DNA of 24,000 nt. Origin: Scytonema sp. RU_4_4 (GTDB lineage: Bacteria > Cyanobacteriota > Cyanobacteriia > Cyanobacteriales > Nostocaceae). Made by a program: the position numbers and the translations under genes. The notes beneath the pieces were generated by a model that worked only from the letters and a program-made list of their open reading frames with translations, had not been told where the DNA came from and did no database searches. How positions within the stretch are numbered: position 1 is the stretch's first letter; every line of letters begins with the position of its first letter. The stretch lies in assembly GCA_012031965.1 (NCBI GenBank), contig JAAUSC010000024.1, positions 1,532-25,531 of the forward strand, in the 5' to 3' direction. Shown here piece after piece: positions 2,826-19,135 of the stretch.

Positions 2826-3872
2826 CTAATACTTAATTCTTGGATCTACATAAGCATTGATAATATCAATCACAATACTAGCAACGACCACAATAGCCGC
2901 AAAAAATACCAACACTCCCTGTATTAAAGGATAATCCCGCGCATTAATGGCATCATATAATTTATTCGCCAATCCAGGCCAAGAAAAGGTAACTTCAGTC
3001 AAAATCGCCCCACCTAATAAAGACGCAAAGGTCAATCCCATAACTGTAATAACTGGAATCAGCGCATTTTTTAAAGCATGAGAAAACAGAATCTTTCTTT
3101 CTGAAATACCTCTTGCTCTTGCTGCTTCCACATAATCTGCTTTCAGAGTTTGCTTTAAATTCACTCGCACAATTCGCTCAAAAATACCACTGAGCAAAAC
3201 TCCCAAGGTAATACTAGGAAGCGCAAGATAATGTAAAGCAGTGAAAAACTGATTCAAGTTTCCACTCAATAAACTATCAACTGTATATAAACCAGTCATA
3301 CCATGTGGAGCTGGCATTGTTGTCGGGAAGCGCGTTCCTAAAGGAAACCAACCCAACTGCACTGCAAAAATCAATTGCAGAACCATCCCTGCCCAAAACA
3401 TAGGTAGCGAATATGTGATAATTCCAAATAATCGCCCTCCAACATCTAGAGCACTTCCAGGACGAGAAGCAGAAAGAATACCAATTCCAATTCCAACGAT
3501 AAGTGCGATCGCCATACTGCAAAACGCTAATTCCACAGTTGCAGGAAAATATTGCCCAATCACCTCCCAAACCGACTGTCCACGACTCGCTATAGAAGTT
3601 CCTAAATCCAGACGCAGCAATTTTCCGATGTAATTCAAGTACTGTAACCATATAGGAAGATTTAAACCCAGTTTGGCTCGCAATTCTTCCTTCGCACTTT
3701 CTGGCGCACGTCCACCAAGAATTGCATCTACTGGATCTCCTGGTGTTGCACGTAGTAGGAGAAACACGACTGTAGTAACAGTCAAGAGCATCAACGGAGC
3801 TAAAAGTAAACGGGCAAAAATGTAATATTGTAAGGCTTTGGATCTAGACATAATAAGCAATTCAAAGTTCAA
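2826..3872 (-). CDS. ABC transporter permease, peptide/nickel (DppB/OppB-like) family; likely start at ATG 3851
   Basis: About six predicted TM segments. N-terminal LLRATPGDPVD motif and the EAA-type loop YVEAARARGISERKILFSHALKNALIP are typical of the OppB/DppB family. Confidence 0.9.
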   Translation of the reverse strand: MNFELLIMSRSKALQYYIFARLLLAPLMLLTVTTVVFLLLRATPGDPVDAILGGRAPESAKEELRAKLGLNLPIWLQYLNYIGKLLRLDLGTSIASRGQSVWEVIGQYFPATVELAFCSMAIALIVGIGIGILSASRPGSALDVGGRLFGIITYSLPMFWAGMVLQLIFAVQLGWFPLGTRFPTTMPAPHGMTGLYTVDSLLSGNLNQFFTALHYLALPSITLGVLLSGIFERIVRVNLKQTLKADYVEAARARGISERKILFSHALKNALIPVITVMGLTFASLLGGAILTEVTFSWPGLANKLYDAINARDYPLIQGVLVFFAAIVVVASIVIDIINAYVDPRIKY

Positions 3873-4013
3873 AATTCAATTCGGAAGAAAAGCAGTACTA
3901 GTCAGTCGTCTAGTTACCTAGCGGAATGCAAATTAAATACGTAACAGCTTATTTTGTGAGTTGTTAATTTTAGTAGTTAAATGTTAAATAACAACTAACT
4001 ACTCACCTCATAA

Positions 4014-5663
4014 CTATTTTTTTATTGCTTGATAAATTAAAATTTGAGTCGGATTAAGTTGCACGCCACTGACTCCCTTGCGAGCAAATGCATAGTCTTT
4101 GTTTTGCCATAAGGGAACATAAGGGACATCAGTTGCTATTTGTGCTTGAATGTTTGCAAAAATTTTCTTACGTACTTGGGGATTTTGCTCTTGGCGTTGG
4201 TTTCCAATCAGCTTGTTCATAATTTCGTTGTAATAAAACGAACCCTGAGTTTGACTTCCCCCTTGTTCGCATCCCTTCGCATCTGACCCTTTATCACAAC
4301 CCAAAAACGGTTGAATATAATTATCTGCGTCCAAAAAATCTGGATACCAATCTAGCAAAGCAGTTGGGTAAAAACTCTTAGCTATCGCTCTAAAAAAGGT
4401 AGCACTGTCTACAACATTGACTTCAAATTGCAACATTCCATCCATATATTTATCGGCATAAGCTTTTAGTAGCTGTGCTGCCAAACTGCGAGTTGGAGAA
4501 CTGGAAGGATACCAAACTTGTAGCTTGACTGGATTTTCTTGAGAAAAACCAGCAGAAGTTAACAATTGTTTAGCGGTGTCTACATTACCATCACCGTATT
4601 TCTCTTTAAACAATGGCTGGGAAACCTCAAGTGTTTTCGGTACCATGCTATACAAGGGACTAGCTTGACCCAATAAAACACGCTCATTCATCAGTGGACG
4701 GTCAATCATCGCCGCTACTGCTTGTCTAACCTCTGGCTTATCCAACGGTTTTTGATTCCGGTTTAGTACCAGATAAGAGACTACACTACCTTGAGCTGAT
4801 ATCGCTTGCCAATCTCCTTTTTTGGCACTTTTTTCTAAGCTGCGAATTTGGTCTGGTTCTAAAGATAGGTAAGCGACATCAACTGCACCTGTGCGAAAGG
4901 AGTTATACAAATTAGCCGGACTGCTGAGAATTTGCAAATTAATACCTTTATTCGCTGGTTTTTCTCCCCAATATTTATCAAATACATCAAATTGTAAGGA
5001 ATCTGTCCCATAACGCGCTAGTTTATATGGACCAGTACCAATAAAGATATTTGGCTGAAATTTCTCTGCACCAATTTCATAAGCTTTGGGAGAAACTGGA
5101 CAAACGCCTGCGAACGCCAGCAACGATGGAAACGCCGCAAACGGTTTTTTCAGTTGTACCGTTAACTCGTACTCACTAGTCGCTTTTACTGAAGCCACCA
5201 CATCTGCTAATAAAAAAGAAGGTTTCCCGCCGTTTTTGATAAAGCGTTCCAGACTAAACGCCATTGCTTTGGCGTCAAACGGAGTTCCATCGTGAAATAC
5301 CACTCCTTGACGTAGAGGAATTGTGTATGTTAAACCATCTTGACTCACTTTGGGTAAAGCGGTGGCTAATTGAGGTTTAACTTCAGTGCTTCCTGGTTCA
5401 TATGTGTAAAGGCGATCGCTCATATTGTAAACCAACCCAAGCGATGCGAGTTCATAAGCATCAGCTGGATCAAGGGTACGAGGATAAAGCGTTGTACCTA
5501 CAGAAATGCGACCATCTCCTGTTGAGGTCTTGACTGCACCAGATATTGTCGTAACCTGCTGGCTTCTTGAGCAACTAGCGACTAGAAGTAGACACAAACC
5601 CAGTAAAGAAAGCAATTTAGTCATTTGACTCCACTGTCTTGCGGACAAGGAAAACCTGGTCAT
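4014..5663 (-). CDS. ABC transporter substrate-binding protein, family 5 (peptide/oligopeptide type), probable lipoprotein
   Basis: 549 aa with family-5 SBP-like sequence throughout. Signal sequence ends in a lipobox-like LLVASC. The alternative start ATG 5624 has a GGAG Shine-Dalgarno sequence. Confidence 0.9.
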   Translation of the reverse strand: MTRFSLSARQWSQMTKLLSLLGLCLLLVASCSRSQQVTTISGAVKTSTGDGRISVGTTLYPRTLDPADAYELASLGLVYNMSDRLYTYEPGSTEVKPQLATALPKVSQDGLTYTIPLRQGVVFHDGTPFDAKAMAFSLERFIKNGGKPSFLLADVVASVKATSEYELTVQLKKPFAAFPSLLAFAGVCPVSPKAYEIGAEKFQPNIFIGTGPYKLARYGTDSLQFDVFDKYWGEKPANKGINLQILSSPANLYNSFRTGAVDVAYLSLEPDQIRSLEKSAKKGDWQAISAQGSVVSYLVLNRNQKPLDKPEVRQAVAAMIDRPLMNERVLLGQASPLYSMVPKTLEVSQPLFKEKYGDGNVDTAKQLLTSAGFSQENPVKLQVWYPSSSPTRSLAAQLLKAYADKYMDGMLQFEVNVVDSATFFRAIAKSFYPTALLDWYPDFLDADNYIQPFLGCDKGSDAKGCEQGGSQTQGSFYYNEIMNKLIGNQRQEQNPQVRKKIFANIQAQIATDVPYVPLWQNKDYAFARKGVSGVQLNPTQILIYQAIKK

Positions 5664-8718: not shown

Positions 8719-8960
8719 TCCCATACATACAGAAAAGAGTGAATAAGCTATTCATTAATAATTAACTAATACAAAAGAGTAAATAATTTATGATATAATG
8801 TACGATCTGGAAGGTAATGTGTTCAGATCCTCTTTTCTGCGCTAGTATGAAAAAGCTAGTATGAAAAAGGATGTAGGTGTGGAATGCCTATTTGGCTCTT
8901 GCATATACATCGCTAGGAGGCAAAACCTTTACGGAGAATAATCACCAGGAAACAATCAGC

Positions 8961-10181
8961 ATGGTCAATCAGAAATTAACCGCTCCTGAAATTGGATTTA
9001 CTCACGACGATTTCGCTGCTCTGCTAGACAAGTACGATTATCATTTTAGCCCAGGCGATATAGTACCAGGTACAGTATTCAGCATAGAGCCACGCGGCGC
9101 TCTGATTGACATAGGTGCTAAAACAGCAGCATATATACCTATACAAGAAATGTCTATCAACCGGGTAGATAGCCCGGAAGAAGTCTTACAATCCAACGAA
9201 ACACGGGAATTTTTCATCCTTACTGATGAAAACGAAGATGGTCAACTGACGCTATCCATTCGCCGTATTGAATACATGCGGGCTTGGGAACGTGTACGAC
9301 AGTTGCAGGCAGAAGATGCAACTGTCCGTTCTGGCGTTTTTGCTACCAATCGTGGTGGAGCTTTGGTGCGGATAGAAGGCTTACGTGGATTTATTCCTGG
9401 TTCTCATATTAGCACCCGCAAACCAAAAGAAGAGTTGGTTGGCGAAGAACTGCCATTAAAATTCCTAGAGGTAGACGAAGAACGTAACCGCCTTGTTTTA
9501 TCTCATCGTCGTGCGCTGGTTGAGCGCAAGATGAACCGCTTAGAAGTTGGAGAAGTCGTGATTGGTACTGTACGCGGTATTAAGCCCTACGGTGCCTTTA
9601 TTGATATTGGCGGCGTGAGTGGTCTACTTCACATCTCCGAAATTTCCCACGAGCATATAGATACACCTCATAGTGTCTTTAATGTCAATGATGAAGTTAA
9701 AGTCATGATCATTGACTTAGATGCAGAACGTGGTCGTATTTCCTTGTCTACCAAACAACTGGAACCTGAACCAGGCGATATGATTAAGAATCGCGATTTG
9801 GTGTATGACAAGGCAGAGGAAATGGCTGCGAAGTATCGGGAACAACTGCTAGCCAAACAGCAAGGTGCTCCTGCGGCTCCTGCTGCATCAGCTGAAGCCG
9901 CAGAAATTGTGGGTGAAGAAATACCTGCAGAAATTGTGGGTGAAGAAATACCTGCAGAAATTGTGGGTGAAGAAATACCTGCAGAAATTGTGGGTGAAGA
10001 AATACCCGCAGCAGTAGCAGTTGAAGAAGAAATACCCGCAGCAGTAGCAGTTGAAGAAGAAATACCCTCAGCAGTTGAAGAAGAAATACCCGCAGCAGTT
10101 GAAGAAGAAATACCCGTAGCAGTTGAAGAAGAAATACCCGTAGCAGTTGAAGAAGAAATACCCGCAGCAGTTGAAGAGTAA
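8961..10181 (+). CDS. rpsA: 30S ribosomal protein S1 with a C-terminal acidic tandem-repeat extension
   Basis: MVNQKLTAPEIGFTHDDFAALLDKYDYHF is the typical cyanobacterial S1 N-terminus (ATG 8961; the track starts earlier at GTG 8877). Three S1 domains are followed by a 93-aa repeat tail. Confidence 0.93.
   Translation: MVNQKLTAPEIGFTHDDFAALLDKYDYHFSPGDIVPGTVFSIEPRGALIDIGAKTAAYIPIQEMSINRVDSPEEVLQSNETREFFILTDENEDGQLTLSIRRIEYMRAWERVRQLQAEDATVRSGVFATNRGGALVRIEGLRGFIPGSHISTRKPKEELVGEELPLKFLEVDEERNRLVLSHRRALVERKMNRLEVGEVVIGTVRGIKPYGAFIDIGGVSGLLHISEISHEHIDTPHSVFNVNDEVKVMIIDLDAERGRISLSTKQLEPEPGDMIKNRDLVYDKAEEMAAKYREQLLAKQQGAPAAPAASAEAAEIVGEEIPAEIVGEEIPAEIVGEEIPAEIVGEEIPAAVAVEEEIPAAVAVEEEIPSAVEEEIPAAVEEEIPVAVEEEIPVAVEEEIPAAVEE
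9900..10178 (+). repeat. In-frame tandem repeats inside rpsA: 27 bp x4 (AEIVGEEIP), 30 bp x2 (AAVAVEEEIP), 24 bp x4 plus a partial copy (xAVEEEIP)
   Basis: Directly visible, nearly perfect tandem copies. Track ORF 9668-10186 on the minus strand is an antisense artefact of these repeats. Confidence 0.95.
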
Positions 10182-10894: not shown

Positions 10895-11007
10895 AACAGT
10901 GCCTAGTATTGCGTTTTCTGAGGACACAAGCCGCTAAATCTCAGTGAAAATTTTTACCTGAAGCGTTAAATTCTAGAACAGATTTCATCTAAACCTCCAG
11001 GAGACCC

Positions 11008-11034
11008 CCACCAAAACTGTACTCAGTTTGGTGG
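11008..11034 (-). repeat. Right-end subterminal imperfect hairpin of the IscB element
   Basis: CCACCAAAACTG-TACT-CAGTTTGGTGG: an 11-bp stem with one bulged A and a 4-nt TACT loop. Same design as the hairpin at 12703-12731. Confidence 0.55.
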
Positions 11035-11130
11035 CGGGAGGATGTCCGGGTTAATTGTGAAACGTCCCTTAAATGATTTTGTGCGTTAGCACAAACAATG
11101 AGAGGGACAGTTGAGCAATTAACAAATCTT

Positions 11131-12414
11131 CTATTGTGCATACGAGTAACCATCTTTTGCGTGAATGCGTTTACAAAACTTGTGCGATATTCCTTGAACT
11201 AATCCGTTTTTAGCAGAAATATTGAAACTACCTGACGAACGGATAGCCACTTTCCCAATATAATTACCAACCTTTTTACCAGTGGTGACGACTGCTTTTA
11301 CGATGTCACCAGTTTGAAAATTAAAGTGTATTTTTTCTCTTGGTACGTGTCGATGTGGGAAACCGAATTTATCTGTGCGACATGATTGCCTAGCTCCGTG
11401 TCCGTTAGCTGTAATTAACAATGGTTTGGCTCCTTTAATAATCAGTTTGGGTGTTGATTTCCCAACACAAGCCGCATCTAACCAGTGAGTCTTTTCTAAT
11501 TTTTGTTGACTTCTGTTGAACTTTGTTAGACCTCCTGAACCCGTTTCTACAGGCAATCCTGTCTCTTTTAAAATTCTAAATAACGCCCACCGAGTTGTGT
11601 TCACAGCGGCTGCATCAGCTAATGGTCTTTTAGCTTGTGCCAAAATTTTTGATAATTTAGCTGGGTCTTTTTTGAGAAACTCTTTGATATCTTTTGTCCC
11701 TTTTTTGGTGTTACATTTATCGCAACTTAAGGTGAGATTTGTAATAGAATTACTACCTCCCTTCGCTCGCGGGTGAATGTGTTCTACCTGAAAAGGAACG
11801 TCTTTAACGCCACAATAAGCACATTGCCTACCCCACTTTTCAAGTAAATATTCCCGCGTTTCGTAACCTGCTAAAGTACCTTGCTGATATTCCTCCCCTT
11901 TGATATCTGGATTACGCATTAACTGCATATCAAAACGGACTAATTCCTGACTAATAGCCTTAATTGGTGCAAATCGGCATAACTTATTAACCCAGGTTTC
12001 AATATTCTCGACACGGCTTTGTAAGCTCGGTGCTAACCATCCTTTTGGACGTGTTCTGTTTAAAAATCTTGGCGCTCTATAACGAGTTTTTCTAGCGCGT
12101 CTACCACGTCTTAATTGTCGTCTAGATGTTAAAGCTTCTCTAATAGCAAAGCCGCGATGTTTTAATTCTGCTGCAAATACGACTTCGCCAGTAGTCTCGT
12201 TGATTAATGCAATTCCTGTGAATTTTGCGCCTGGGTCTATTTTTAATCGCAGTGATGACACTGGTGAATCTGGTCTTGATTCTTTCAAAATAATTGTGAA
12301 CGGGAAGCGGCGATAAACTGCTGCTTTTTTGTTCCTTAATAACTGTCTAGCTTGTGCTGAATGAATTGGTAAGAGTGGTATGAAGTCTGTATCTAAAACG
12401 AATACTTTGCACAT
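11131..12414 (-). CDS. iscB: IscB-type RNA-guided nuclease (Cas9 ancestor family): PLMP-like N-terminus, split RuvC, bridge helix, HNH
   Basis: FIPLLPIH is PLMP-like. RuvC-I is LKIDPGAKFTGIAL (D60). The Arg-rich helix is RRQLRRGRRARKTRYRAPRF. RuvC-II is ISQELVRFD (E157). HNH is CAYCG...VEHIHPRAKGGSNSITNLTLSCDKCN (C198/C201/C231/C234, H212, N226/N235). RuvC-III is HWLDAACVG (H310/D313). 427 aa. A strong AAGGAGG Shine-Dalgarno sequence lies 6 nt before the ATG. Confidence 0.9.
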   Translation of the reverse strand: MCKVFVLDTDFIPLLPIHSAQARQLLRNKKAAVYRRFPFTIILKESRPDSPVSSLRLKIDPGAKFTGIALINETTGEVVFAAELKHRGFAIREALTSRRQLRRGRRARKTRYRAPRFLNRTRPKGWLAPSLQSRVENIETWVNKLCRFAPIKAISQELVRFDMQLMRNPDIKGEEYQQGTLAGYETREYLLEKWGRQCAYCGVKDVPFQVEHIHPRAKGGSNSITNLTLSCDKCNTKKGTKDIKEFLKKDPAKLSKILAQAKRPLADAAAVNTTRWALFRILKETGLPVETGSGGLTKFNRSQQKLEKTHWLDAACVGKSTPKLIIKGAKPLLITANGHGARQSCRTDKFGFPHRHVPREKIHFNFQTGDIVKAVVTTGKKVGNYIGKVAIRSSGSFNISAKNGLVQGISHKFCKRIHAKDGYSYAQ

Positions 12415-12745
12415 AAGTGCCTCCTTTCGGGTAATGTTAGCCTGGACAATGATTTAAAGGCTTTTTACGCTAACAACACTGACTCAAACCCAATGATTCT
12501 GTTTAATTGTTAACCTCAGGAGCCACTGCGTTGCCGGAGAGAAGTGCCTTGCGCGGGTTAAGCGCGTTGTGGCAACTTCGGAGGTTCCCCCGGTTGTAGC
12601 AAGTGGCGTAGCTACAAACTGGCTGCGTATTTGTAGGTGAGATGACCTAAAAATCGTAGTGAATTAACACTTAGTCGGGTAAACTCTAGGCTTTAAAAGC
12701 CCCCACTGTATTAGGTACTCCTAATCAGTGGTGGGTAGTTTACTA
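12415..12745 (-). ncRNA. Candidate omega RNA (HEARO-type guide RNA scaffold) of IscB; 5' end approximate
   Basis: About 330 nt upstream of iscB with no ORF. It is locally G+C-rich and densely self-complementary. Hairpins: 12703-12731, then TTGTAGC (12594-12600) / GCTACAA (12611-12617), then GAAGTGCC (12541-12548) / GGCAACTTC (12571-12579) enclosing GCGC-N7-GCGC. The position matches the known IscB locus layout. Confidence 0.6.
12703..12731 (-). repeat. Left-end subterminal imperfect hairpin of the IscB element
   Basis: CCACTGTATTAGG-TACT-CCTAATCAGTGG: a 12-bp stem with one bulged T and a TACT loop. Confidence 0.55.
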
Positions 12746-13013
12746 TTTTACACATTGACATATTCAAAGATTTTGACATATTGTTAACAAGTTCGCGTTA
12801 ATGAGATAACCTTAACAAAAGTTTGAGTAACCCTAACTTGCGTAAGCAAGCTCAACTTCACTCTGGTTTCAGACAAGCTCAAATCCGATCAGGGCATGAA
12901 AGCCCCTTCAACTAAACTTCAATAATGTTTCAGGGTTTTGCCTCTACCAATTTGGAGTACGAAGGCTCACCATTGTGAGATTCAACCAATATTGAACAGG
13001 AGAGAAGAGGCAA

Positions 13014-14243
13014 ATGATCATTTTCGACCCTATAACCTTGAGTGCTATTAGCCATACTCTCAATGCTGCTTCTGTCATCAGTGTTAGCATTCAAAATCAA
13101 TCGAACTTGAGTCTGAGTCAAGCAACAAAATCGAAGTTAGCAAAGAACCCAACAAAGCTTTCACACCTGACAAGAACGACGACTCCTACTCTCGTAGCCC
13201 AAGCCACCACTTCAACACCGAACTCAGATACGAGCAAATGCGGTTCTGGTCAATCACGCGATAAGTACACACAACCATTTGCCTGCGACAGCATTTGGAA
13301 TATGCCAATTGGAGCGAACGCGAAATACGTTGATGCTTATATCGGCTCAACGGGCGTTGGAGTTGACACAGACTGGTTCATCATAACCCAGGAAAGCGAC
13401 CGGGCTGTGTCAACTTATATGCCTGGTTCGTGGGGTCCAGGTCGCTGCACTGGCACTCAGGTGCAGCAGCAAGCGCAATGGCATCCCGAAGCGGGTGAGC
13501 TGTTGAAAGTTCCTGAGAGTCTCATCATTGAGGATGCAAGTGGAAACTTTACTCCAAACGGCTCCTCAGCCTTCCTGAAGCCGGATGGCAGAACACTAGT
13601 GTCTTTTAACGTGACCACCCGTTGTCAACAGGGTGCCCCGCTTTACGGCGTTTGGTTTGGACAGCAAGACATTTACGGCGATGGCATTGATGGTGGGCAT
13701 GGCGGCTCAGGAATGTCGAGCATTGGCGGTAGCATTCGCAAAGGTGAGTTGTTGAACGACGAGCCTATCCGTCACGCACTCAAGATTGATATCTGGGGCA
13801 AGTGGCTGCATTACAATGCTTCATCGTCAACCCCTGGTCACCGCTGGCCAGCCCGTCTGGCTGATTCTAATGCATCATCCCAATACCAGGGGTCCAATCC
13901 AGCACTGGTCATGGGTTCCTTACTAGCAATTCCACCTAATGTCACAGCCGAGAGCCTAGGACTGACCAGCAAAGCAGGTAAGAAAATCTTCCAAGCTATG
14001 CAAGACTACGGTGCTTACGTCGTTGACAATTCAGGCTGGGACTACAATTACCTCTGCGTTGAACAGAGCGCCGAGCAAGAGTATGAGACAGTTACCGGAC
14101 ATGAGATTCATGGAGATGCAGCGCTCCAAGCGGACTTCGCCAAAATTATTGCTGCTGTGAAGGTTGTGGACAACAACAAATCGAACAGTATTGGTGGAGG
14201 TGGTACACCACGCCAACCTTTGGCACCACCACTTGGAAATTAA
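13014..14243 (+). CDS. Hypothetical protein (409 aa) with an S/T-rich linker; compositionally atypical
   Basis: Long ORF with GGAGA upstream of the ATG. Hand counts of several 60-nt lines give roughly 45-65% G+C, against about 38-47% in neighbouring genes. Many G/C-ending codons. No family recognised (motifs GHGGSGMSSIGGSIRKGEL and HALKIDIWGKW). Confidence 0.7.
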   Translation: MIIFDPITLSAISHTLNAASVISVSIQNQSNLSLSQATKSKLAKNPTKLSHLTRTTTPTLVAQATTSTPNSDTSKCGSGQSRDKYTQPFACDSIWNMPIGANAKYVDAYIGSTGVGVDTDWFIITQESDRAVSTYMPGSWGPGRCTGTQVQQQAQWHPEAGELLKVPESLIIEDASGNFTPNGSSAFLKPDGRTLVSFNVTTRCQQGAPLYGVWFGQQDIYGDGIDGGHGGSGMSSIGGSIRKGELLNDEPIRHALKIDIWGKWLHYNASSSTPGHRWPARLADSNASSQYQGSNPALVMGSLLAIPPNVTAESLGLTSKAGKKIFQAMQDYGAYVVDNSGWDYNYLCVEQSAEQEYETVTGHEIHGDAALQADFAKIIAAVKVVDNNKSNSIGGGGTPRQPLAPPLGN

Positions 14244-15753: not shown

Positions 15754-16359
15754 ATGATGAGTGACCGAGATTACACATTAATTATTGATAAGAGCGGTAG
15801 CATGTCTACTCCTGACCAAGCAGGTGGTAGAAGTCGGTGGGAGATAGCCCAAGAATCTACACTTGCTTTGGCAAGAAAGTGTGAGCAATTTGACCCTGAC
15901 GGTATCACTGTTTATGTGTTTGCTGGAAGGTTTAAACGCTACGACGATGTAACTTCAGCCAAAGTCGCGCAGATTTTTCTAGAAAATGACCCGGGTGGTA
16001 CGACGAATTTAGCAGGTGTTCTCCAAGACGCAACCAATAATTACTTTCAGCGCAAAGCTGCTGGTCAAACCAAGCTCAACGGAGAAACAATTCTAGTTAT
16101 CACCGATGGTGAACCAGATGATCGTAAAGCAGTATTTGAAGTCGTCATTAATGCATCTCATCAGATGGAACGCGATGAAGAATTAGGAATTTCTATCATT
16201 CAAGTAGGCTCAGATGCTCAAGCAACTAAATTTCTCAAAGCTTTAGATGACCAAATGGAAAGTGTTGGTGCTAAATTTGACATCTGCGACACAATCACTT
16301 TAGATGAAATGGAAGATATGAGCCTCGCTGATGTATTGATGAATGCAGTGACCGATTAA
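15754..16359 (+). CDS. vWA domain protein (copine/TerF-like vWA), paralog 1
   Basis: MIDAS elements DKSGSM, GGTTNLAG and ITDGEPDD. About 200 aa. Confidence 0.85.
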   Translation: MMSDRDYTLIIDKSGSMSTPDQAGGRSRWEIAQESTLALARKCEQFDPDGITVYVFAGRFKRYDDVTSAKVAQIFLENDPGGTTNLAGVLQDATNNYFQRKAAGQTKLNGETILVITDGEPDDRKAVFEVVINASHQMERDEELGISIIQVGSDAQATKFLKALDDQMESVGAKFDICDTITLDEMEDMSLADVLMNAVTD

Positions 16360-16404: not shown

Positions 16405-17025
16405 ATGGAGAATAAAAAAATGCTAGAGAATCGTGATTATACCTTAATTATCGACAAAAGTGGCAGCATGGCAACTCCAGACCAAAAGGGGGGTAGGAGC
16501 AGATGGTTTGCTGCACAGGAATCTACCTTCGCCTTAGCGAGTAAATGTGAGCAATTAGACCCTGATGGTATTACTGTTTATCTATTTTCTGGTAGATTTA
16601 AACGCTATGAAAATGTGACATCAACCAAGGTGTTGCAAATTTTTCAAGAGAATGACCCTTCTGGTACAACAGATTTGGCAGGTGTGTTGAAACACGCAAC
16701 CGATAACTACTTTCAACGTAAAGCTGCGGGTGAAACTAAGCCAAATGGTGAAACTATTTTAGTTGTAACTGATGGTGAACCAGATGACCGTAAAGCGGTT
16801 ATGAAGGTGATTATTGAAGCTTCTCGTCAGATGGATCGCGATGAGGAACTTGCTATTTCTTTTATTCAAGTAGGTACAGACTCCCAGGCGACTCGCTTTC
16901 TCAAAGTATTAGATGATGAATTGCAAGGAGCAGGTGCAAAGTTTGATATCTGCGACACCATTACTATAGAAGATATGGAAGACATGAGTTTATCAGAAAT
17001 ACTGCTCAATGCCATTAATGATTAA
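16405..17025 (+). CDS. vWA domain protein, paralog 2 (tandem duplicate)
   Basis: Collinear with 15754-16359 at roughly 70% aa identity by eye, with the same MIDAS elements. An alternative start is ATG 16420. Confidence 0.85.
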   Translation: MENKKMLENRDYTLIIDKSGSMATPDQKGGRSRWFAAQESTFALASKCEQLDPDGITVYLFSGRFKRYENVTSTKVLQIFQENDPSGTTDLAGVLKHATDNYFQRKAAGETKPNGETILVVTDGEPDDRKAVMKVIIEASRQMDRDEELAISFIQVGTDSQATRFLKVLDDELQGAGAKFDICDTITIEDMEDMSLSEILLNAIND

Positions 17026-18010: not shown

Positions 18011-18230
18011 TAGGTGGGCATTGCTCACCAATATCTCAAATCTCTATCACATAGGCTTTTGGTCGCAATGTCCAACGCCAGATGCTTCAAGCCGGGAAAC
18101 CCGTCCAACGCACTGGCTCCCCTACGATTTGTAGTCTATTCATATGAAAACCGCTGTTACTTTAGCAGTTTGCATTTGGGTGCAATACACCCTCGAATTA
18201 AGTAGGGTGGGCATTACAATCCCACCCTAC
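18011..18230. repeat. Second cluster of the dispersed GC-rich repeats, including the perfect hairpin GTAGGGTGGG-N8-CCCACCCTAC (18203-18230)
   Basis: Shares TAGGTGGGCATTGCTCACC, CAAGCCGGGAAACCCG and CAACGCACTGGCTCCCCTACG with 445-736. Track ORF 18014-18205 is an artefact. Confidence 0.7.
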
Positions 18231-18367: not shown

Positions 18368-19135
18368 TTAGTGCATGAAGTGGAGAAATATAGTTTTTAA
18401 AAACTTTTTAAAATGAACCGCAGAGGTACAGAGAAAGCAGAGGAGAAAAATTGAGGAGGGAGAAAGCAGGCTTGCATTTGTGACAGGCTTAATAGAGGTG
18501 CTCTTGTTTGTTTGGTGCTGCAGATACTGCATTATGTATCTGTTGCTATGATGAGGCACTATCCCCATATTAGACTTATAGACAGACGCTTCGTACATGA
18601 CATCAGGTACGTAAACGAACCAGGTACTCTTAGCTTTTCCCTGCTTAGGTTGAAGTGGCTGCACAAATGTGACTTTCCAATGGTCGCCGCCATATCTTTG
18701 AGCATCGCGATCAATAGATGAAACACGCAATTGCTGACCTGCTGTGGCTGCGTACTTGTCTTCTTGTGCTAATTTTGATGATTGTTCCCGCCAGTCTTGC
18801 TTGAAAGTTGTATTTGTTCTGACTCTGAGAATTGTTGAGGTTGATGGAACTGCTGATAATTCTTCTACATGAGGTGCGTAAACGTACCAGATGGTTTTCG
18901 CTTTACCTTGATTAGGCTGAAGTGGTTGCTCGAAAGTGACTAACCAATGGTCACCACCATATTTCTGAGTATTACGGTCAATAGACGAAACGCGAAATTG
19001 CTGACCTGCTTGAGCTAAATACTTGTTTTGTTCTTGTAGCTGAAGATTGTTTGATTGTAGTCGCCAGTCTTGCTTGAAGGTTGTATTTGTCTTCACTCTT
19101 AAAGTGATTGGCATTGATGCATCTCCTCTTACCAC
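18368..19135 (-). CDS. Hypothetical protein with two tandem ~85-aa domain repeats; likely start at ATG 19114
   Basis: Repeat 1 is ITLRVKTNTTFKQDWRLQ...GGDHWLVTFEQPLQPNQGKAKTIWYVYAPHV. Repeat 2 is TILRVRTNTTFKQDWREQ...GGDHWKVTFVQPLQPKQGKAKSTWFVYVPDV. The C-terminal ~75 aa are low-complexity and run through a dispersed repeat. Confidence 0.6.
   Translation of the reverse strand: MVRGDASMPITLRVKTNTTFKQDWRLQSNNLQLQEQNKYLAQAGQQFRVSSIDRNTQKYGGDHWLVTFEQPLQPNQGKAKTIWYVYAPHVEELSAVPSTSTILRVRTNTTFKQDWREQSSKLAQEDKYAATAGQQLRVSSIDRDAQRYGGDHWKVTFVQPLQPKQGKAKSTWFVYVPDVMYEASVYKSNMGIVPHHSNRYIMQYLQHQTNKSTSIKPVTNASLLSPSSIFLLCFLCTSAVHFKKFLKTIFLHFMH

Follow-up and report, generated by a model that had tools for sequence, protein, structure and literature searches.

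A 24,000-nucleotide (nt) stretch of the metagenome-assembled genome (MAG) of Scytonema sp. RU_4_4, hereafter the window, contains an open reading frame (ORF) at 11131-12414 on the minus strand whose product is very probably a catalytically competent IscB that shares a non-autonomous ISC element of 1,755 bp with the gene for its omega RNA; this reading draws on sequence, predicted fold, conservation, the omega RNA, the element ends and the target site, and coordinates are window positions except where another locus is named. By its domain content, the ORF product is an IscB, a small transposon-borne endonuclease of the OMEGA class that is guided by RNA, makes double-strand cuts in DNA and is ancestral to Cas9, and represents a fresh example of a well-described family rather than another kind of protein. 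The sole irregular feature of this otherwise ordinary IscB locus is a 90-nt insertion in the omega RNA. Because IscB is active only as a ribonucleoprotein (RNP), an intact enzyme is not yet an active system at the locus, and RNP activity of the Scytonema copy, with its insertion and with no promoter found, is plausible on the present analysis.

Identity and conservation of the IscB protein

The iscB ORF starts with ATG and runs for 427 amino acids (aa) without an internal stop. Together with a strong ribosome-binding sequence, whose core (GGAGG) is invariant among 11 aligned relatives, this agrees with the uninterrupted, well-initiated frame described in the first-pass annotation, which had been made from the DNA letters alone.

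11131-12414, minus strand: iscB coding sequence (427 aa), with the PLMP domain, RuvC-I (D60), the arginine-rich bridge helix and RuvC-II (E157); HNH (C198/C201, H212, N226, C231/C234, N235), inserted between RuvC-II and the following RuvC-III (H310, D313); and a β-rich C-terminal WED/target-adjacent motif (TAM)-interaction region at residues ~320-427
12420-12426, minus strand: Shine-Dalgarno sequence AAGGAGG, 5 nt ahead of the ATG

In profile searches, Pfam RRXRR matched residues 4-179 without a break (E = 2.6e-71) and was followed by HNH at residues 198-240 (E = 1.9e-12), the HNH Pfam domains together matching residues 198-247. The NCBIfam equivalog NF040563 (guided_IscB, 'RNA-guided endonuclease IscB') was matched along its entire length (profile positions 1-314 of 314) with 457.6 bits (E = 1.8e-137), against a curated cut-off of 175 bits. 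Sequence matches in the PDB ranked TbaIscB first (2.1e-39), followed by several OgeuIscB entries (~1e-24), HfmIscB and IsrB, and then small Cas9s. The wider IscB family comprises 939 clusters at 50% identity (E < 1e-30).

The residues previously proposed for catalysis and zinc binding were all found where they had been placed, namely D60 (RLKIDPGAK), E157 (AISQELVRF) and H310/D313 (THWLDAACV) for RuvC, H212 (FQVEHIHPR), N226 and N235 for HNH, and two CxxC pairs, C198/C201 (CAYC) and C231/C234 (CDKC), which are the only CxxC motifs in the protein. The spacing of H212, N226 and N235 (14 and 9 residues) equals that of H840, N854 and N863 in the HNH domain of SpCas9. When the protein was aligned to OgeuIscB (PDB 7xht, native numbering), D60, E157, H212, H310 and D313 paired with D61, E193, H247, H340 and D343, respectively. 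This bears out the proposed assignment, as RuvC catalysis in OgeuIscB is carried out by D61, E193, H340 and D343, and HNH catalysis by the histidine H247, the counterpart of Cas9 H840 (Kato et al. 2022, PMC9640706). The N-terminal PLMP domain was likewise recovered: residues 13-16, within ...IPLLPI..., read PLLP and pair with the PLMP of OgeuIscB and TbaIscB, and P13, L14 and P16 are kept in 56, 51 and 57 of 64 diverse relatives.

The motif itself (~12367-12378) appears as PLLP here, as PL[D/N]P in 63 of 74 Nostocales copies and as PLMP across the wider family; judging from these sequences, its third position is clearly free to vary.

Structure prediction gave a concordant picture. An initial AlphaFold run based on 57 sequences at 82-100% identity reached a mean predicted local distance difference test (pLDDT) score of 48.6 and was not used for the fold search, whereas a second run (AlphaFold2) based on 64 sequences with identities down to 39% yielded a model with a pLDDT of 87 and a predicted template modeling (pTM) score of 0.79. 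The top Foldseek match of this model in the PDB was an IscB cryo-EM structure (8csz_D; E = 1.5e-28; whole-chain template modeling [TM] score, 0.72), and the next ten comprised OrufIscB, TbaIscB, OgeuIscB, IsrB and two compact Cas9s, the type II-D Cas9 (Cas9d) being the first of the two. The PLMP region was modeled as a β-sheet and helix (pLDDT 90-96), and residues 320-427 were β-rich, with pLDDT mostly 90-96 and falling to 72-75 at residues 341-360; this C-terminal region is kept through the last residues in representatives at 40-64% identity. In the model, the bridge helix (88-107) runs almost directly into the RuvC-II helix and strand bearing E157 (129-157). Since the RRXRR match is also unbroken, there is no room for a recognition (REC) lobe, whose absence had been noted at the outset.

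A genome scan recovered 80 related cyanobacterial loci, in Nostocales and beyond (66-89% aa identity), and 73 of them encode an intact ORF of 424-433 aa. The ratio of nonsynonymous to synonymous substitution rates (dN/dS; Nei-Gojobori) between the Scytonema copy and 70 other intact Nostocales copies had a median of 0.098 (range, 0.057-0.139), was 0.071 against a paralogue in the same MAG and had a median of 0.106 across 941 pairs with dS of 0.05-1.5; these values are rough because dS (0.8-1.7) approaches saturation, but they remain far from 1. The paralogue, with 84% aa identity, is the sole other copy seen for this MAG. Among 74 copies, E157, H212, N226, N235, H310, D313 and the four cysteines (C198, C201, C231, C234) are invariant and D60 is kept in 72, and in the diverse set of 64 sequences reaching down to 39% identity the listed catalytic and zinc-binding residues are kept in 56-64. 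The Scytonema copy departs from the family at two positions conserved in at least 95% of copies, both by conservative changes (V71I and D73E); the median copy of the family has three such departures. Nothing in these comparisons points to relaxed selection, and by these estimates the protein is under strong purifying selection. Collectively, the catalytic and zinc-binding residues in place and the purifying selection argue for an intact enzyme rather than a decayed relic. The first-pass annotation, which favored an active enzyme, had named misaligned catalytic residues and relaxed selection or frameshifts among paralogues as grounds for refutation, and neither comparison refuted it.

In three of the related loci (L029, L050 and L070), iscB (3001-4353 or 3001-4386 of the respective locus) encodes 450-461 aa in an otherwise intact ORF; the extra length comes from ~66-110 nt inserted in frame around codon 50, where the PLMP domain gives way to RuvC-I.

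The ISC element, its target site and the proposed cycle

The element spans 10989-12743 (1,755 bp), belongs to the IS200/IS605 superfamily and contains iscB and the omega RNA gene. These limits were drawn because similarity to the 80 loci starts at 12743 (GTAAACTACCC) and stops at 10989. Read in the iscB direction, the 3′ boundary is ...GGAGGTTTAG/ATGA(A), the slash marking a junction here and below, which on the plus strand reads TTCAT (10984-10988) / CTAAACCTCC (10989 onward).

10984-10988, plus strand: target site/TAM TTCAT (ATGAA in the iscB direction), immediately next to the transposon end, where similarity to the 80 loci ends
10989-11130, plus strand: left end in the TnpA sense (3′ of iscB), starting CTAAACCTCC; conserved up to the boundary and unrelated past it
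11008-11034: subterminal imperfect hairpin of the left end, CCACCAAAACTG-TACT-CAGTTTGGTGG, 19 nt from the end (DNA fold, -14.5 kcal/mol; z, -2.3)
12703-12731, plus strand: subterminal hairpin of the right end, CCACTGTATTAGG-TACT-CCTAATCAGTGG, 12 nt from the end (DNA fold, -13.9 kcal/mol; z, -3.1)
12431-12743, minus strand: omega RNA scaffold, matching the full Rfam HEARO model (RF02033, positions 1-211); its 5′ end, GUAAACUACCC, is the transposon right end
12744-12759, minus strand: putative guide 5′-GUCAAUGUGUAAAAUA-3′ in flanking host DNA, its 16-nt length assumed by analogy

The element reads 5′-GTAAAC...TTTAG-3′ and is followed by ATGA, a tetranucleotide that adjoins the element end in all 33 family copies with a recognizable end; in 23 of 32, an A comes next. 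Cyanobacterial ISC transposons have been described as having a 5′-GT terminus, inserting at N/ATGA and generating no target-site duplication (Kapitonov et al. 2016, PMC4810608), and the TAM of wild-type GstIscB is TTCAT (Meers et al., bioRxiv 10.1101/2023.03.14.532601). Both end hairpins share a CCAC...TACT...GTGG design, and the RNA complement of the right-end hairpin is the first hairpin of the omega RNA. No long inverted repeats within 150 nt of each other were found in 10900-12900. On the Scytonema sp. RU_4_4 chromosome, the insertion is flanked by a nitroreductase gene on one side and an unannotated gene on the other. Within the family, recent mobility is evident from four Anabaena azotica copies that combine ~98-100% identity within the element with unrelated flanks.

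The omega RNA scaffold was matched by cmscan with 102.9 bits (E = 1.7e-20; gathering score, 83 bits), and all helices of the HEARO model were detected. The guide was placed in the flank, where different loci show no relatedness ahead of the scaffold, as expected for a flank-derived guide. A guide of 16 nt suffices in OgeuIscB (PMC9640706).

By homology with OgeuIscB and GstIscB, a cycle of expression, RNP assembly, cleavage and homing can be proposed for this element. Transcription from the flank through the right end would produce an omega RNA whose 5′ end carries ~16 nt of flank (GUCAAUGUGUAAAAUA) as the guide, and the scaffold would be bound by IscB via its PLMP, RuvC, bridge-helix and WED regions. 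Excision of the element by a Y1 TnpA acting in trans would leave a re-joined donor site consisting of the guide match and ATGAA, that is, GTCAATGTGTAAAATA then ATGAA (excision joint, ...CAGATTTCAT/TATTTTACAC...), and this site would be recognized by the RNP through the 3′ TAM. The target strand would be cut by HNH (H212, with Mg2+ held by N235 and E211 and a Cys4 zinc fold) and the non-target strand by RuvC (D60/E157/H310/D313). The occupied site would be spared because the guide match there continues as GTAAAC, not ATGAA.

The omega RNA insertion and competing explanations

Relatives of the Scytonema omega RNA score 96-150 bits against HEARO, and 16 of the 19 scanned are 219-224 nt long. The Scytonema match is longer (313 nt) and lower scoring because of the 90-nt insertion, which lies in the 3′ bulge of the stem-loop preceding the long pseudoknot hairpin of the HEARO model.

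12520-12609, minus strand: 90-nt G+C-rich hairpin insertion between ...UUUGUAGCU and CUGAGGUUAAC, absent from 10 of the 10 closest relatives

Several observations weigh against a working element at this locus. The omega RNA reaches only 102.9 bits at 313 nt, versus 119-150 bits in close relatives. In the OgeuIscB RNP, stem-loop 2 and the nexus pseudoknot hairpin stack coaxially (PMC9640706); the insertion adjoins the corresponding helices, so an effect on the RNP is conceivable. Minimum free energy (MFE) folding pairs the insertion with the scaffold (19 pairs), although MFE folding misses the Rfam consensus even when the insertion is left out, and the comparison with and without it is therefore uninformative. 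A promoter scan revealed no sigma-70-like promoter upstream of the putative guide (12744-13013, minus strand); the scan is weak evidence because many cyanobacterial promoters lack a -35 box. Read-through cannot supply the omega RNA transcript because the nearest upstream gene (13014-14243, plus strand) is divergent from omega RNA and iscB, whereas IscB elements tend toward co-orientation with the upstream gene (Meers et al., bioRxiv 10.1101/2023.03.14.532601). No TnpA or Y1 transposase was found among the 20 window ORFs scanned, which is normal because only ~1.5% of iscB genes have tnpA nearby and ~98.5% do not (bioRxiv 10.1101/2023.03.14.532601). Finally, the empty donor site CAGATTTCAT/TATTTTACACATTG was not found in a metagenome scan.

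A competing explanation is that the protein is intact while the locus is crippled, the insertion, the missing promoter or both preventing a working guide RNA and leaving the ORF as a very recent relic. In a variant of this explanation, IscB would instead work in trans with the omega RNAs and guides of its paralogues. Of the 11 closest sequences, only this one has the insertion, it sits at a junction of helices that are stacked in OgeuIscB, and insertions in this segment of the omega RNA are rare (3 of ~68 copies). However, the HEARO score exceeds the gathering threshold with every helix in place, and the insertion, folded alone, forms a hairpin of its own (-35.5 kcal/mol; z, -2.8). Comparable RNAs also occur beside intact genes. 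Locus L008, from a Nostoc MAG, has, at the same junction, a ~40-nt insertion (2830-2880 of that locus) whose core (CGCAGTCGCCACAA...CGCAAGGCGCTGCTC) is related; L020 and L023 have a common 25-nt insertion, GTTCGCG(C/T)AGCGTCTCCCTTTGGGA, near the omega RNA 3′ end (~2930-2960), distinct from that of Scytonema; and L030 has an expanded stem-loop in the omega RNA upstream of iscB. All four keep a full-length iscB ORF (424 aa in L030 and 427 aa in the other three). Unusual substitutions are not in excess in the Scytonema protein either, as noted above. Taken jointly, the relic and in-trans versions are unlikely, but they deserve more weight than any other alternative to a competent IscB in a non-autonomous ISC element.

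The insertion and that of L008 have a related core, GCCACAA...CGCAAGGC.CT.CTC. Fragments of this core are present on Nostocales plasmids. Apart from the plasmid matches and the identical contig L082, the core was not found elsewhere in the window or in 85 loci, nor was it found in a metagenome scan, and the insertion is consequently not assignable to a named repeat family. It may resemble the 'small dispersed repeats' of heterocystous cyanobacteria associated with Elhai et al. 2008. One conceivable interpretation, which we regard as improbable, is that the insertion is no accident, being either a miniature mobile hairpin element aimed at one particular junction of the omega RNA or an accessory RNA module by which IscB activity is tuned or switched; if true, the hairpin would be a parasite of, or a regulator on, a guide RNA gene.

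The window also has three dispersed copies of a 23-mer, TCCAACGCACTGGCTCCCTTACG (714-736, 4060-4082 and 18104-18126), which resembles part of a plasmid match to the insertion.

Domestication of IscB for a host function, such as guide-directed regulation or defense, with the protein no longer serving transposon maintenance, is very improbable. The absence of TnpA from the window, the strong purifying selection across many Nostocales and the fact that just two rather diverged paralogues were seen for the MAG would fit this scenario. Against it, the element has kept its two ends with their hairpins and the ATGA(A) site, and the protein all of its nuclease residues; each locus has its own flanks and guide, and near-identical copies occupy different sites in related genomes; the lack of a nearby tnpA is also the usual condition of iscB genes.

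A stand-alone HNH or McrA-type restriction endonuclease, which is suggested by database names only ('HNH endonuclease', under which NCBI already holds the identical protein from Scytonema sp. RU_4_4, and '5-methylcytosine-specific restriction endonuclease McrA') and by the HNH Pfam matches, is hardly credible and was rejected on domain architecture and fold match, since HNH accounts for only ~50 of 427 residues, the remainder being PLMP, split RuvC, bridge helix and WED as in IscB, the gene comes with a HEARO RNA and newer NCBI records name relatives 'RNA-guided endonuclease IscB'.

Identity as a Cas9 was also rejected. Type II Cas9, including the compact II-D Cas9d, resembles the Scytonema protein in its split RuvC with inserted HNH, its arginine-rich bridge helix and the logic of a 3′ protospacer-adjacent motif or TAM, and weak matches to Cas9d and Cas9 models and structures were obtained. 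Unlike Cas9, however, the Scytonema IscB lacks a REC lobe, there is no CRISPR-like repeat array in the 24 kb and no cas domains were found among the neighbor ORFs scanned, while the NCBIfam Cas9d and Cas9 profiles scored well under their cut-offs (47 versus 375 bits and 21.5 versus 100 bits).

Known relatives and the surrounding window

Among characterized systems, OgeuIscB from a human-gut metagenome (PDB 7xht, 7utn and 8csz) is the best structural match (TM score, 0.72) and shares with the Scytonema protein its domain order, one-for-one catalytic residues, PLMP motif, lack of a REC lobe and an upstream omega RNA. The two proteins share only ~17-21% identity in structural alignment, and OgeuIscB is longer (496 aa versus 427 aa), its zinc site is CxxC...CxxH rather than CxxC...CxxC, and at the third HNH position it has H in place of N235. 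KraIscB-1 of Ktedonobacter racemifer (Altae-Tran et al. 2021) is reportedly similar in size, with E157A and H212A said to be its nickase mutants; these numbers coincide with those of the Scytonema residues, which would put the two proteins in one compact subfamily. TbaIscB (PDB 9k30), the closest solved relative by sequence, has in common with the Scytonema protein the bridge helix and the HNH motifs VP(F/L)(Q/E)(V/I)E, RxxGG and CxKCNxxKG; it is a protein of 1,068 aa whose IscB-like part begins at ~495, whereas the Scytonema protein has no such N-terminal extension.

At the level of the element, GstIscB/ISGst of Geobacillus stearothermophilus is likewise non-autonomous, with an identical TAM (TTCAT) located 5′ of the left end, and provides the basis of the homing and donor-joint cleavage model (Meers et al., bioRxiv 10.1101/2023.03.14.532601). 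It belongs to another phylum, and its activity, TnpA excision and homing were demonstrated directly, whereas the corresponding steps in Scytonema are proposed by analogy. ISC1-1_MA and other cyanobacterial ISC elements, likened here by published description, are also short, encode IscB only, begin with 5′-GT, carry subterminal hairpins, cause no duplication and insert at N/ATGA (PMC4810608); ISC1-1_MA differs in its Microcystis host and in its 3′ terminus (CG versus AG here).

The neighbors of the element in the window are ordinary chromosomal genes, including recR, ABC transporter parts, psbB and genes for an S1 protein, a nitroreductase, an M50 protease, vWA proteins and HxlR. The ORF at 8877-10181 (plus strand) encodes a ribosomal-protein-S1-like product with three S1 domains and an unusual C-terminal extension, which arises from a long acidic tandem repeat at its 3′ end (9898-10177; periods of 27 and 24 nt in ~4 and 6.5-10 copies; units AEIVGEEIP and AAVEEEIP). 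The genes at 15754-16359 and 16405-17025 (plus strand) are tandem paralogues of vWA or vWA-TerF-like type that share a 300-nt stretch at 76% DNA identity. Within the ORF at 18368-19135 (minus strand), direct repeats (166 and 76 nt long, with a spacing of 267-273 nt and 76-78% identity) point to a protein built of repeated ~90-aa modules without a clear Pfam family. Near the start of the window, a 189-nt repeat occurs at 94-282 and 1163-1351 (91% identity), and a cluster of short G+C-rich palindromic repeats occupies 540-740 (e.g., GCCAG..CCTACGGAGGGA.ACCCTCCTGCAG..CTGG, present twice). An ORF over this cluster (513-854) had no Pfam match and is probably spurious.

The discovery value of this locus is small: descriptions of IscB/HEARO elements go back to 2010-2016, with activity known from 2021 and structures from 2022. 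The analysis corrects the database label of the protein ('HNH endonuclease' or 'McrA') and documents a compact, 427-aa IscB clade in Nostocales with strong purifying selection, a clear ATGAA TAM and recently mobile copies. It also flags sites in the omega RNA scaffold that are naturally tolerant of, or prone to, insertion. Members of this compact clade are candidates to screen as a small genome editor or a cyanobacterial tool.

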